This document shows positions 29,810 through 31,059 of a stretch of 53,795 nucleotides of DNA, one piece after another. The stretch lies in the UHGV virus genome UHGV-0191815; one strand, written 5' to 3'. Every line of letters starts with the position of its first letter. Position 1 is the first letter of the stretch. Position numbers and translations under genes: made by a program. The stretch is from a virus. Below the pieces are notes generated by a model, which ran no database searches, was not told where the DNA came from, and was given only the letters and a program-made list of their open reading frames with translations.

Positions 29810-29838
29810 TTGTGGGTCGAAAACAAACAGATTAAAAT
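29810..29838 (+). promoter_or_regulatory. Candidate late promoter (PR'-like): -35 TTGTGG, 17-bp spacer, -10 TAAAAT
   Basis: Hexamers at 29810-29815 and 29833-29838; followed within about 30 nt by a strong terminator hairpin, the layout of Q-dependent late promoters. Confidence 0.4.
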
Positions 29839-29866
29839 ATTACCTAACAATGCGAAACTGTAACTA

Positions 29867-29888
29867 CCCGGCCCCGTGCCGGGTTTTT
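29867..29888 (+). terminator. Promoter-proximal intrinsic terminator (tR'-like) upstream of the lysis genes
   Basis: Stem cccggc / gccggg with loop cccgt, then ttttt. Confidence 0.55.
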
Positions 29889-29908
29889 GCTTTGTTGGAG
29901 GTAAATCT

Positions 29909-30109
29909 ATGTTCGACAGAATACGGGAGGCGTGTGCGTATGTGCCTGGTGCAGTAACCGCTTTTTTCGGTGCTATAACCATCAATGACGTCGCTGTTTT
30001 CGTTGGTATCTTATCAACCATAGGCACATTTGCCGTTAATTATTACTTCAAATCACAGGAGAACAAGCGAGCGCAAGAGGAACACGACGCGCGAATGGGG
30101 AATAAGTAA
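29909..30109 (+). CDS. Holin (small class II / pinholin-like)
   Basis: 66 aa with two hydrophobic segments and a charged C-terminus (YYFKSQENKRAQEEHDARMGNK), resembling phage 21 S; RBS ggagg; immediately precedes the endolysin. Confidence 0.7.
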   Translation: MFDRIREACAYVPGAVTAFFGAITINDVAVFVGILSTIGTFAVNYYFKSQENKRAQEEHDARMGNK

Positions 30110-30601
30110 ATGATTAGCCAATCGCTGAAAAACAAGATTGTTGCTGCGGCGGCTGGTGGGGCGATAGCGATTGCGGCGGTGATGATTAAGCCATTGGAGG
30201 GCGTGGAATACGATCCTTATCGTGATGTTGTCGGTGTATGGACTGTTTGCTACGGTCACACCGGAAAAGACATCATGCTTGGGAAGACTTACACGCAATC
30301 AGAATGCGATGCTTTATTAAATAAAGACCTGCACAAAACCGCAAAAGCTATCGATCCATATATCAAAGTCGAAATATCAGATTTTACCCGCGCTGCACTT
30401 TATTCCTTCGCCTATAACGTAGGCGTTACCAATTTCAAAACATCAACCTTATTAAAGCTACTCAATGACGGCAAGAAATCAGAAGCGTGCGCACAGCTTA
30501 AACGCTGGGTATACGCTGGCGGTAAGAAGTGGCAAGGCCTGGTAAACCGCCGCGATGTTGAATATGCCGTTTGCGAATGGGGTGAGAAATGGACAAGGTG
30601 A
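30110..30601 (+). CDS. SAR endolysin (T4-lysozyme-like muramidase with N-terminal signal-anchor-release domain)
   Basis: N-terminal SAR helix [18 protein letters not shown]; catalytic E-x8-D-x5-T ([16 protein letters not shown]); strong similarity to phage 21 R endolysin. Confidence 0.85.
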
Positions 30602-31059
30602 AGACGTTAATCATCGCCGCTGTTGTTTGCATTATTGCCAGCCTTACCGCCGTAACGTGCCATTACCAGAGCGAGGCGACAAGGTTACAGGAAGAATTAA
30701 CGACCACGCAAGGCGCACTGAAAACAGCAAGTAACACTATTCAGCAGATGAAGGAGCGAAACGCCGAACTGTCAAAACTTGATAAGAGGTATCACGATGA
30801 GATTAAAGCTATCAGATCTGACATTGCCGATCTGCGCACTGGCATTGATAACGGTTCTATCCGGTTGCGCGTCAACGCAACACCTGTGCGAGTGTCCGAC
30901 TCCACCGGAACCGCCAGCGCCATTGATGGAGCCGCCTGTAGACTCACTCCCGACGCTGAATCGGCTTATCTATCCCTCAGAGAACAACTAAAAGAGAAAG
31001 ACGCGAAGATAACCGCGCTTCAGGGCTACATCAAAACGCAGTGCTTACGCAAAGAATAA
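30589..31059 (+). CDS. Rz-like i-spanin
   Basis: N-terminal TM helix ([16 protein letters not shown]) then coiled-coil periplasmic domain; overlaps the endolysin stop. Confidence 0.75.
30797..30991 (+). CDS. Rz1-like o-spanin, embedded in the +1 frame of Rz
   Basis: [23 protein letters not shown]|C lipobox then proline-rich [17 protein letters not shown]; entirely inside the Rz gene. Confidence 0.75.
   Translation: MRLKLSDLTLPICALALITVLSGCASTQHLCECPTPPEPPAPLMEPPVDSLPTLNRLIYPSENN

Follow-up and report, generated by a model that had tools for sequence, protein, structure and literature searches.

How does a temperate phage turn on its late genes when the gene for its Q antiterminator lies several kilobases upstream of them? 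The question is raised by the virus genome UHGV-0191815, which was analyzed here as a single window of 53,795 nucleotides and which carries the late-gene control point and the lysis gene set of a temperate E. coli phage of the mEp021 (mEpimmI) group. The window is 88–91% identical to its mEpimmI relatives over 63–90% of a 10.8-kb stretch and represents a distinct mosaic member of the group; its gene order and control block are those of mEp021, mEp010 and the other mEpimmI phages (PMC11893012; GenBank MH706966, PP180001-5). The published account describes these phages, mEp021 and mEp010 among them, as Nus-dependent coliphages that need host Nus factors, states that they carry N-like and Q-like proteins, and reports the group to be as common as lambdoid phages among human faecal isolates (PMC11893012).

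The lysis cassette as such is ordinary, a textbook arrangement that is mostly annotated already in the relatives: the mEp021 record labels a 'putative late gene regulator Q', a terminator TERM_5, a 'putative class II holin', a lysozyme and a lysis protein. Among the seven GenBank relatives inspected, the holin is annotated in only two (mEp021 and MagusPhagus), Rz1 in none, and none has an annotated late promoter; a keyword search of PMC11893012, along with the seven records, likewise yielded no description of a late promoter, a pause element or Rz1. What the present analysis adds is the location of the probable late switch of the mEpimmI group. We estimate the probability at about 0.65 that this switch, consisting of a local promoter with Q loading, resides in a short non-coding block directly before the holin gene, with the lysis cassette behind it.

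The nature of the Q protein itself is clear. The 242-aa product of 23888–24616 (+ strand), which the sequence-only reading had singled out as a zinc-finger protein in connection with a Q-like factor, is a true member of the Q-lambda family in its long form, with a score of 108.5 bits to PF03589 (Pfam cut-off 26.7), an E value of 1.6e-78 to phrog_127, and a full-length match to Q-lambda in PDB 7UBM (E 1e-38). Residues 1–114 and 150–240 align to residues 1–114 and 117–207 of the lambda protein, and a 35-residue insert occupies positions 115–149. The nozzle-forming segment, residues 1–44, is 57% identical to that of Q-lambda, with G39 kept. The zinc ribbon is doubled, with four CxxC motifs: the alignment shows no change at C151, C154, C177 or C180, and the second CxxC...CxxC pair sits within the insert, which is common to the Q proteins of ST104, mEp460, Eho59 and Brookers. 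The functional roles of the zinc-ribbon arm and the nozzle segment are taken here from the work on Q-lambda (PMC9388147).

In the canonical cassette, the pR' transcription unit comes immediately after the Q gene (PMC9388147), whereas here no such unit stands directly 3' of Q, the stop codon of which overlaps the beginning of the ORF behind it. That ORF opens an array of about 22 tightly packed, small ORFs on the same strand (24616–29801, + strand, from the ORF list), annotated as hypothetical proteins in all relatives and spanning 1.9 to 6.7 kb among 51 loci; the distance from Q to the holin-proximal block is 5,226 nt (5.2 kb) in the window and 1.9–6.7 kb among the relatives. Could the true Q loading site lie over the end of Q, where lambda-type cassettes put pR', with the hairpin at 29866–29888 being the first Q-sensitive terminator after the small-ORF array? 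A lambda-like motif does occur there: GTGACG at 24599–24604 is followed after 16 nt by TAAGCT at 24621–24626 and after a further 7 nt by AACGAT at 24634–24639. The last element repeats the pause element of lambda letter for letter, the spacer GGTGAATAATGGA is similar to that of lambda (TTGAATAAAATTGGG), and the codons GAA ATA AAC GAT are invariant in the loci that have this ORF. Nevertheless, the motif is wholly coding: GTGACG belongs to a V-T-R stretch that is also conserved in lambda Q and is not a promoter there, and AACGAT supplies the N-D codons of the ORF after Q. The motif receives a weighted promoter score of just 6.7 bits, there is no close downstream terminator, and at least 10 of the 51 loci have a different gene after Q, without the -10 and AACGAT, and yet keep both Q and the holin-proximal block. 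We therefore consider a loading site at the end of Q very improbable.

The elements of the holin-proximal switch that we favor, all on the + strand, fit into some hundred nucleotides. A candidate -35 hexamer, TTGTGG at 29810–29815, in which only TTG fits the consensus, is separated by a 17-nt spacer from a candidate -10 hexamer, TAAAAT at 29833–29838. Within the spacer lies AAAACAAACAGAT (29820–29832), nearly invariant in 54 related loci. In lambda, the Q-binding element is within the pR' spacer (PMC9388147), and by this analogy AAAACAAACAGAT is a candidate Q-binding element, although it has no similarity to the lambda one. Seven nucleotides past the -10 comes the invariant, -10-like AACAAT (29846–29851, approximately +1 to +6), a candidate sigma-dependent pause element. 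A hairpin, ACCCGGC/CCCGT/GCCGGGT at 29866–29884, begins 28 nt past the -10 and merges into a T5 run at 29884–29888; the terminator scan and the RNA fold identify 29866–29888 as an intrinsic terminator with a 7-bp stem (6 G-C) and a 5-nt loop, and a leader RNA of about 43 nt is predicted. The holin Shine-Dalgarno sequence, GGAGG at 29897–29901, follows, 7 nt 5' of the ATG. The mEp021 record lists the hairpin as TERM_5 (score 100), and ARNold predicts it in mEp010, mEp013, mEp044 and mEp515. An experimentally shown terminator 't5' of mEp021 is mentioned in PMC11893012, and the GenBank numbering of TERM_5 suggests that 't5' may be this very hairpin before the holin.

On re-reading, all coordinates given previously for the promoter, the terminator, the holin ribosome-binding site and the lysis genes hold, and so does the placement of a GC-rich terminator hairpin some 30 nt past the promoter, with the holin ribosome-binding site next to it. 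The promoter TTGTGG-17-TAAAAT stands only in part: TAAAAT is invariant in 54 of 54 loci, whereas the -35 is not conserved, being TTGTRG in about three quarters of the loci (TTGTAT in two) and TCGCGC in about one quarter. The further suggestion that this is the arrangement expected for a terminator overcome by Q appears to be sound, judging by the late-promoter anatomy of the Q-lambda family: a -10, 5–7 nt and AACNNT are found directly downstream of Q in lambda (AACGAT), ST104 (AACAGT), mEp460 (AACGAT), Brookers (AACGAT) and Eho59 (AACACT). A good -35 is present in all five of these phages, and the first terminator comes within about 45–80 nt in three.

Is the candidate promoter anything more than a chance match? 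By simple consensus counting it fits at 8 of 12 positions and falls below the threshold of the scan tool, and the bare pattern TAnnnT-N5-7-AACRVT is not significant because the 6 occurrences in the window barely differ from the 6.1 expected. The composite motif, on the other hand, is located in the single 107-nt gap before the lysis genes and on the right strand, where about 0.006 occurrences are expected. With a purpose-made, position-weighted sigma-70 matrix, TTGTGG-17-TAAAAT scores 11.4 bits and ranks 10th of 53,764 + strand positions; this score is comparable to that of the ST104 promoter and better than that of mEp460, and in each TTGT-type locus it is this site that scores best ahead of the block, whereas the score falls to 7.4 bits in the relatives with a TCGCGC -35. 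Given this weighted rank, the position in the lysis gap and the invariance of the block, the candidate late promoter is more than chance.

Across the 54 related loci, pairwise diversity is 0.3–0.5 in the upstream mosaic, drops at 29806–29820 to 0.035–0.08 over the non-coding block (29820–29908), and is 0.05–0.29 in the lysis genes. Of the 53 related loci with a Q gene, 51 have a single copy of the block, which in each case stands immediately before the holin irrespective of the upstream sequence. Variation in the hairpin is confined to the loop, with the exception of an A-to-G substitution at the base of the stem, where a G-U pair results, and GGAGG is invariant in 52 of 54 loci, the exceptions, with GGGGG, being the two loci (L031 and L052) in which a diverged holin allele stands behind the same block. 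A sensitive blastn search of 50,697 phage records matched only the same seven mEp-type phages, and a scan with a degenerate 20-base pattern (one genome per species) gave four matches, all of them chance ones without flanking similarity; thus, the block beside a Q gene was not found in any other phage. Conservation of the block could partly reflect linkage to the holin module, and the terminator and ribosome-binding site alone. Furthermore, variants of Q and variants of the block do not covary, both length forms of Q occurring with both upstream types, so that nothing ties Q specifically to the block DNA.

These observations bear on an alternative under which there is no late promoter at 29810–29838 at all: the hairpin would end the early and delayed-early operon, the late genes would be transcribed by read-through from upstream, whether by polymerase modified by the N-like Gp17, by Q loaded elsewhere or by both, and the block would be kept for its terminator, its ribosome-binding site and its lysis linkage. 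In its favor, the window has a weak -35 and about a quarter of the relatives have none, the bare motif occurs at chance frequency, and the upstream ORFs are on the same strand and tightly packed up to 29801. A boxA-like CGCTCTTTA at 22442–22450 precedes NinG, RusA and Q, and transcription that has been antiterminated is accordingly expected from upstream (PMC11893012). This account is nevertheless judged rather unlikely. The terminator and the ribosome-binding site account for 29866–29908 only and not for the invariant 29820–29865, which includes TAAAAT-N7-AACAAT and matches the late-promoter layout of the Q-lambda family. A conserved, apparently intact Q in every genome requires a loading site, loading of the Q-lambda type requires a sigma-dependent pause (PMC9388147), and the block is the sole conserved non-coding block from Q to the late genes.

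Several other features of the region were considered and rejected. A boxB-like hairpin, ACAAU-GCGAA-AUUGU, overlaps AACAAT, and a C/T polymorphism breaks one of its stem pairs in about half of the loci, the window included. CCTAACAAT does not qualify as an rrn boxA, the boxA-defining residues (GCTCTTT) being absent. An ORF at 29850–29957 (35 aa, annotated in mEp044) and an antisense ORF at 29623–30027 each have no ribosome-binding site, cross the terminator and match no family. No Rfam family reached the gathering threshold in the whole window, the segment 29500–31500 giving just two sub-threshold chance matches, and no tRNA genes were found.

Returning to the local switch before the holin, we infer from its anatomy that promoter activity, pausing, Q binding and antitermination are probable attributes of the block 29820–29908, and the following chain of events can be envisaged. 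Early rightward transcription, made terminator-resistant by the N-like Gp17, would proceed through NinG and RusA into Q and on into the small-ORF array. A 2023 study by Valencia-Toxqui et al. in Arch Virol (168:92) reportedly dealt with antitermination by Gp17 in mEp021. The Q protein, with its nozzle segment, helix-turn-helix body and doubled zinc-ribbon arm, would diffuse to the site 5.2 kb downstream, where sigma-70 RNA polymerase would start from TTGTGG-17-TAAAAT at about 29845–29846. Sigma would then re-recognize the -10-like AACAAT, and the polymerase is therefore proposed to pause at about +14 to +17. Without Q, transcription would stop at the hairpin and T5 run (+21 to +43), leaving the short leader RNA. 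Q bound to AAAACAAACAGAT, with NusA by analogy to lambda, would load onto the paused polymerase and narrow the RNA exit channel, so that, under this proposal, the hairpin could not form and transcription would run on into the holin, the endolysin and Rz/Rz1 and then into the terminase and structural genes. The Q-lambda nozzle threads RNA at a length of 12–16 nt (PMC9388147), which precedes the emergence of the hairpin bases +21 to +39. With the terminator stem only 4–7 nt past the expected pause, this would be the most compact loading site that we found. A point against this model is that the hairpin would in any case be no barrier to polymerase that the N-like protein has modified.

An extension of the same idea is that Q has been uncoupled from its loading site by the hypervariable 2–7 kb accessory array and that, in the roughly one quarter of relatives without any -35, the polymerases onto which Q loads may be sigma-containing ones that come from upstream, so that early read-through would become late transcription. 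Only for the Q protein of phage 82 has such promoter-distal engagement been demonstrated in vitro (PMC4914094), and we regard this extension as decidedly doubtful.

The homologies shown here extend to the lysis genes that the switch would serve, which follow immediately. The holin (29909–30109, + strand, ATG at 29909) is a 66-aa class II protein of the HP1 family with two hydrophobic segments joined by a turn of 2–4 residues and a charged C-terminus; it scores 54 bits to PF16080 (cut-off 28.8), residues 3–55 covering profile positions 1–53 of 56, and its homologs are named 'HP1 family phage holin' in RefSeq. An upstream in-frame GTG start at 29876 was discarded: it lies inside the terminator stem and has no ribosome-binding site. 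The endolysin (30110–30601, + strand; 163 aa; glycoside hydrolase family 24, PF00959, 154 bits) is of the phage 21 R type and aligns with PDB 3HDE (E 1.4e-63) at 64% identity over 155 residues, including residues 5–27; the catalytic triad (E-8-D-5-T) has its counterparts in E30, D39 and T45, and in the N-terminal helix, residues 8–24, 10 of 17 residues are Gly or Ala and none is Cys. Rz (30589–31059, + strand; 156 aa) is an inner-membrane spanin with an N-terminal transmembrane helix and a coiled coil (PF03245, 88 bits; phrog_13, E 4e-43). Rz1 (30797–30991, + strand; 64 aa) is a proline-rich outer-membrane lipoprotein spanin with the lipobox LSGC and Cys24, its match to PF06085 (35.7 bits, cut-off 27.9; also phrog_3198) covering the mature part, residues 24–64. 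By frame arithmetic Rz1 is wholly contained in Rz in the +1 frame, and the lowest diversity of the cassette, 0.007–0.024, is seen over its start, at 30750–30824.

Thus, of the phage 21-type cassette claimed by the sequence-only reading, the signal-anchor-release (SAR) endolysin with its E/D/T triad and the fully embedded Rz1 are confirmed, and the holin is not of that type. Its score to PF04971 (P21 S) is 21.6 bits, below the cut-off of 26; BLASTP gave no alignment with S21, the sequence of which was verified against the phage 21 record OL657228; and no dual-start motif was found, there being a single Met start. The pinholin role is plausible by analogy with the HP1 Hol experiments (PMC7312051) and from the pairing with a SAR endolysin. 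The HP1 protein was lethal to cells and caused neither lysis nor leakage of beta-galactosidase, which is pinholin behavior (PMC7312051). Could the holin instead be a canonical, large-hole class II holin, with the SAR endolysin freed upon triggering as in P1 LydA/Lyz? Its first hydrophobic segment has a Kyte-Doolittle value of about 1.3–1.6, compared with about 0.3 for the SAR-type first helix of S21, a clear excess in hydrophobicity, and it may stay in the membrane, in which case the holin could be canonical. The lack of a BLASTP-detectable relation to S21, the sub-threshold PF04971 score and the absence of a dual-start antiholin fit that view as well, and cooperation between SAR endolysins and holins other than pinholins is known (P1; PMC9025707, PMC7312051). 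Against it stand the pinholin behavior within the HP1 holin family, the very small size of the protein with its two segments and short turn, and the R21-type SAR partner, so that large holes are a possibility to be taken seriously but not the one that we prefer. On the small-hole reading, the more probable one, the endolysin would be exported by Sec and, tethered to the membrane by its SAR helix, kept inactive; the accumulating holin would depolarize the membrane, probably via small holes; the endolysin would be released and refold to its active form; and the Rz-Rz1 spanin would then disrupt the outer membrane.

If the switch is confirmed, a protein of the Q-lambda type would be able to act at a site kilobases away from where it is encoded, and a leader of some 43 nt would suffice for Q loading. 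The hypervariable array between the two would then be under early, not late, control, which bears on when the accessory genes act.

How does this locus compare with the known systems? Phage 21 shares the endolysin, its R21 being 64% identical to the one described here, and the activation type is the same because the SAR helix has no Cys; it also has a two-component embedded spanin. The S21 pinholin of phage 21, with its dual-start antiholin, differs from the present holin, which is not an S21 homolog by BLASTP or the Pfam cut-off and has no antiholin, and the Q protein of phage 21 belongs to another family (Q21, PF06530). Haemophilus phage HP1 (hol/lys) has a holin of the same Pfam family, PF16080, and a SAR endolysin partner (PMC7312051). 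The relation is distant: a related holin of a Pasteurella phage has 41% identity along 51 residues, the matches listed do not include HP1 itself, and HP1 is a P2-like myovirus with a different late control. Closer are the P22-like Salmonella phages of the ST104/PS119 type (gene 23 Q, lysis genes 13-19-15): the ST104 Q is the closest one outside the mEpimmI group (39–41% identity), with a doubled zinc ribbon in both, and the lysis genes include an HP1-family class II holin (47% identity to that of the window) and an Rz with embedded Rz1. The late promoter of ST104, TTGCAA-17-TATCAT-6-AACAGT with an early terminator, has a good -35, unlike that of the window, and comes right after Q, with about 430 nt between it and the holin. 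Finally, compared with the Q/pR'/qut/tR' system of lambda, the site proposed here is 5.2 kb rather than about 60 nt from Q, its predicted leader is far shorter than the 194 nt of lambda (6S RNA), its -35 is weak and absent in some relatives (TTGACT in lambda), its spacer bears no relation to the Q-binding element of lambda, and the arm of its Q has a second zinc ribbon. The two systems nevertheless share a Q that is homologous over the full length, a requirement for host Nus factors, a -10 (TAAATT in lambda, TAAAAT here) followed after 6–7 nt by AACGAT or AACAAT at about +1 to +6, and an intrinsic terminator that precedes the lysis genes.

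The window is a new mosaic member of the published mEpimmI group, because a 2-kb region shows 91-95% identity to seven GenBank phages (mEp010, mEp013, mEp554, mEp044, mEp021, mEp515 and MagusPhagus), and positions 22000-32800 match the same seven at 88-91% identity across 63-90% of the length. The mEpimmI phages are Nus-dependent, non-lambdoid temperate siphophages from human faeces for which an N-like antiterminator, Gp17, has been characterised together with three nut sites and a 'Q-lambda-like' protein is mentioned; late control and lysis are not described in that paper (PMC11893012). 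Q, a terminator, a class II holin, a lysozyme and a lysis protein are already annotated in the mEp021 GenBank record. New here are Rz1, a proposed anatomy for promoter and pause, and the finding that a hypervariable gene array lies between Q and its probable site. The sequence-only reading placed a Q-dependent promoter and terminator ahead of a phage 21-type lysis cassette. The promoter, hairpin, GGAGG and lysis genes all lie exactly where it put them, and its interpretation is largely correct, with the corrections that the -35 is not conserved, that Q is distant, that the holin belongs to the HP1 and not the S21 family, and that promoter and pinholin are functions we infer.

The Q-like factor that was proposed at 23888-24616 (+ strand) holds up well. 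The ORF matches PF03589, the Q-lambda family (PMC9388147), with 108 bits, phrog_127 over its full length, and the Q-lambda chains of PDB 7UBM, 4MO1 and 7UBJ with an E value of 1e-38. Residues 1-114 and 150-240 align collinearly with lambda Q 1-114 and 117-207; a 35-residue insert located in the zinc-ribbon 'arm' contributes a second CxxC...CxxC pair and is also found in Q of ST104, mEp460, Eho59 and Brookers, so the long form is the common one and lambda Q the short one. Residues 1-44, which in lambda Q form the exit-channel nozzle upon NusA binding (PMC9388147), are 57% identical to those of lambda and retain G39. Given the family matches, the collinearity and the nozzle identity, the product is very probably a working antiterminator of the Q-lambda type, in keeping with the group's Nus dependence.

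Both Q and a candidate site are present, as proposed, but they are not neighbours: the stop codon of Q, which overlaps the start codon of the next ORF, lies 5,226 nt from the control block (1.9-6.7 kb in relatives). The stretch from Q to the lysis genes, 24616-29801, is filled with about 22 closely spaced small ORFs on the same strand, and because the length of this array differs so much (1.9-6.7 kb among 51 related phages) it has the look of an accessory-gene hotspot. The array ends with a tandem pair of paralogues, 29431-29628 and 29625-29801, each matching phrog_15318. Mid-array, a small ORF (26187-26420) contains within its 5' end a strong hairpin that resembles a terminator and has a T6 run (AAGCGGGATAAAACCCGCTTTTTT, 26205-26224).

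On the + strand, the candidate -35 TTGTGG (29810-29815) and -10 TAAAAT (29833-29838), separated by 17 nt, are followed by a terminator hairpin at 29866-29884 (7 pairs, 6 of them G-C, loop CCCGT, with a T5 run to 29888) and by the GGAGG of the holin gene (29897-29901), whose ATG is at 29909. Taken bare, the pattern is no better than chance: 8 of 12 positions agree with the promoter consensus, which is under the threshold of the promoter scan, and the window holds 6 copies of TAnnnT-N5-7-AACRVT where chance would give 6.1. A different picture comes from weighting the bases by position and from related loci. By a sigma-70 weight matrix built for this analysis from approximate published base frequencies, the promoter scores 11.4 bits and ranks 10th of 53,764 + strand positions (lambda pR' 14.1, ST104 11.8, mEp460 9.2 bits). 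In a set made up of 46 related viral contigs, gathered via the Q protein, and of further loci from phages and E. coli prophages, 54 loci contain the block AAAACAAAYRGATTAAAATAYTNNCTAACAATGCGAAAYTGTAAYTACCCGGC-loop-GCCGGGTTTTTGCTTTGTTGGAGGWAAATCTATG. It is present exactly once in 51 of the 53 that also have Q, and no other non-coding block between Q and the late genes is conserved. Pairwise diversity falls from 0.3-0.5 just upstream, where a mosaic junction lies at about 29806-29820, to 0.035-0.08 inside the block (lysis genes, 0.05-0.29), and the hairpin varies in its loop bases only. The -35 of the sequence-only reading is the exception: it is TTGTRG in about three quarters of loci (TTGTAT in two) and TCGCGC in the remaining quarter or so, in which the weighted score drops to 7.4 bits, about level with other weak candidates.

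Could transcription be controlled elsewhere? A second lambda pR'-like motif, GTGACG-16-TAAGCT-7-AACGAT, overlaps the Q stop and the next ORF (24599-24639), and its spacer (GGTGAATAATGGA) is similar to the lambda Q-binding region. Nevertheless, it falls entirely in coding sequence and is best regarded as a coincidence of it, because GTGACG codes for V-T-R residues common to lambda Q and AACGAT for N-D in the next ORF, because the score is 6.7 bits by the same matrix, and because the motif is missing from at least 10 of 51 loci, in which another gene comes after Q. Read-through of the late genes from upstream, without a local promoter, is a live rival. A 16-pair hairpin terminator follows the methyltransferase gene(s) (22357-22392), and about 50 nt past it is a boxA-like CGCTCTTTA (22442-22450), probably the nutR2 region described for mEp021; since the boxA-like element precedes NinG, RusA and Q, Gp17-modified, terminator-resistant early transcription should reach Q, the array and the hairpin before the holin gene.

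The lysis genes follow directly. The holin (29909-30109, 66 residues) has two hydrophobic segments with a very short turn between them, a charged C-terminus and no dual start. It had been assigned to the phage 21 type, but profile matches place it in the HP1 family (PF16080, 54 bits), whereas the phage 21 S profile gives 21.6, below the cut-off of 26, and BLASTP against a verified S21 sequence yields no alignment. Homologues are class II holins of PS119/ST104-type Salmonella, Burkholderia, Pasteurella and Mannheimia phages. A pinholin is a reasonable reading, because HP1 Hol is lethal without lysis or beta-galactosidase leakage, which its authors took as pinholin behaviour (PMC7312051). The first hydrophobic segment of the window's holin clearly exceeds the SAR-type helix of S21 in hydrophobicity. 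Two related contigs, L031 (13870-14079) and L052, have, behind the conserved block that they share with the window, a diverged holin allele whose N-terminal half differs. The holin ORF is labelled just 'hypothetical protein' in mEp010, mEp013, mEp515 and mEp554; in mEp044 (6740-7492) it is uncalled, the lysozyme ORF has been given an upstream extension, and an annotated 35-aa ORF spans the terminator.

The SAR endolysin and embedded spanin of the sequence-only reading are borne out. The endolysin (30110-30601, PF00959) is 64% identical over 155 residues, including the Gly/Ala-rich N-terminal helix, to phage 21 R (PDB 3HDE) and DLP12 RrrD (4ZPU); E30, D39 and T45 coincide with the catalytic triad and the helix lacks Cys. 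The enzyme is an R21-type SAR endolysin. Rz (30589-31059, PF03245) wholly contains, in its +1 frame, Rz1 (30797-30991, PF06085; lipobox LSGC, proline-rich mature part), the two forming a two-component embedded spanin, and cassette diversity is minimal over the Rz1 start. None of the seven GenBank relatives has Rz1 annotated. The 278-nt gap after Rz holds a TAAAAT-6-AACGGT motif with a weak hairpin and T run (31221-31266), the poorly conserved (diversity 0.15-0.55) counterpart of mEp021 TERM_6, and a 56-aa antisense ORF (31045-31215, minus strand), which is a called gene in mEp013 and is also kept in L031.

With regard to Q-lambda-family phages whose promoter directly follows Q, the -35, spacer, -10, gap and -10-like element run TTGACT-17-TAAATT-6-AACGAT in lambda, TTGCAA-17-TATCAT-6-AACAGT in ST104, TTGCAT-17-TAAGAT-6-AACGAT in mEp460, TTGACT-16-TAAATA-7-AACGAT in Brookers and TTTACA-17-TATAGT-5-AACACT in Eho59. 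Because this layout is shared by TTGTGG-17-TAAAAT-7-AACAAT, the window site carries, at the sequence level, the late-promoter signature of the family. In lambda, Q binds within the promoter spacer, and polymerase is held at +16/+17 by sigma-70 acting on the -10-like element at +1 to +6 (PMC9191641, PMC9388147); by analogy, the conserved spacer 29820-29832 would bind Q, AACAAT (29846-29851) would be the pause element and the invariant TG at 29859-29860 a pause position. The first terminator lies at +194 in lambda, at about +50 to +80 in ST104, +45 to +70 in mEp460 and +45 to +75 in Brookers, and at +21 to +43 in the window; the Q-lambda mechanism can accommodate the predicted leader of about 43 nt, because the lambda nozzle threads RNA at a length of 12-16 nt (PMC9388147), before the hairpin bases emerge. 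In lambda Q adjoins its promoter, whereas in the window it lies 5,226 nt upstream of the block.
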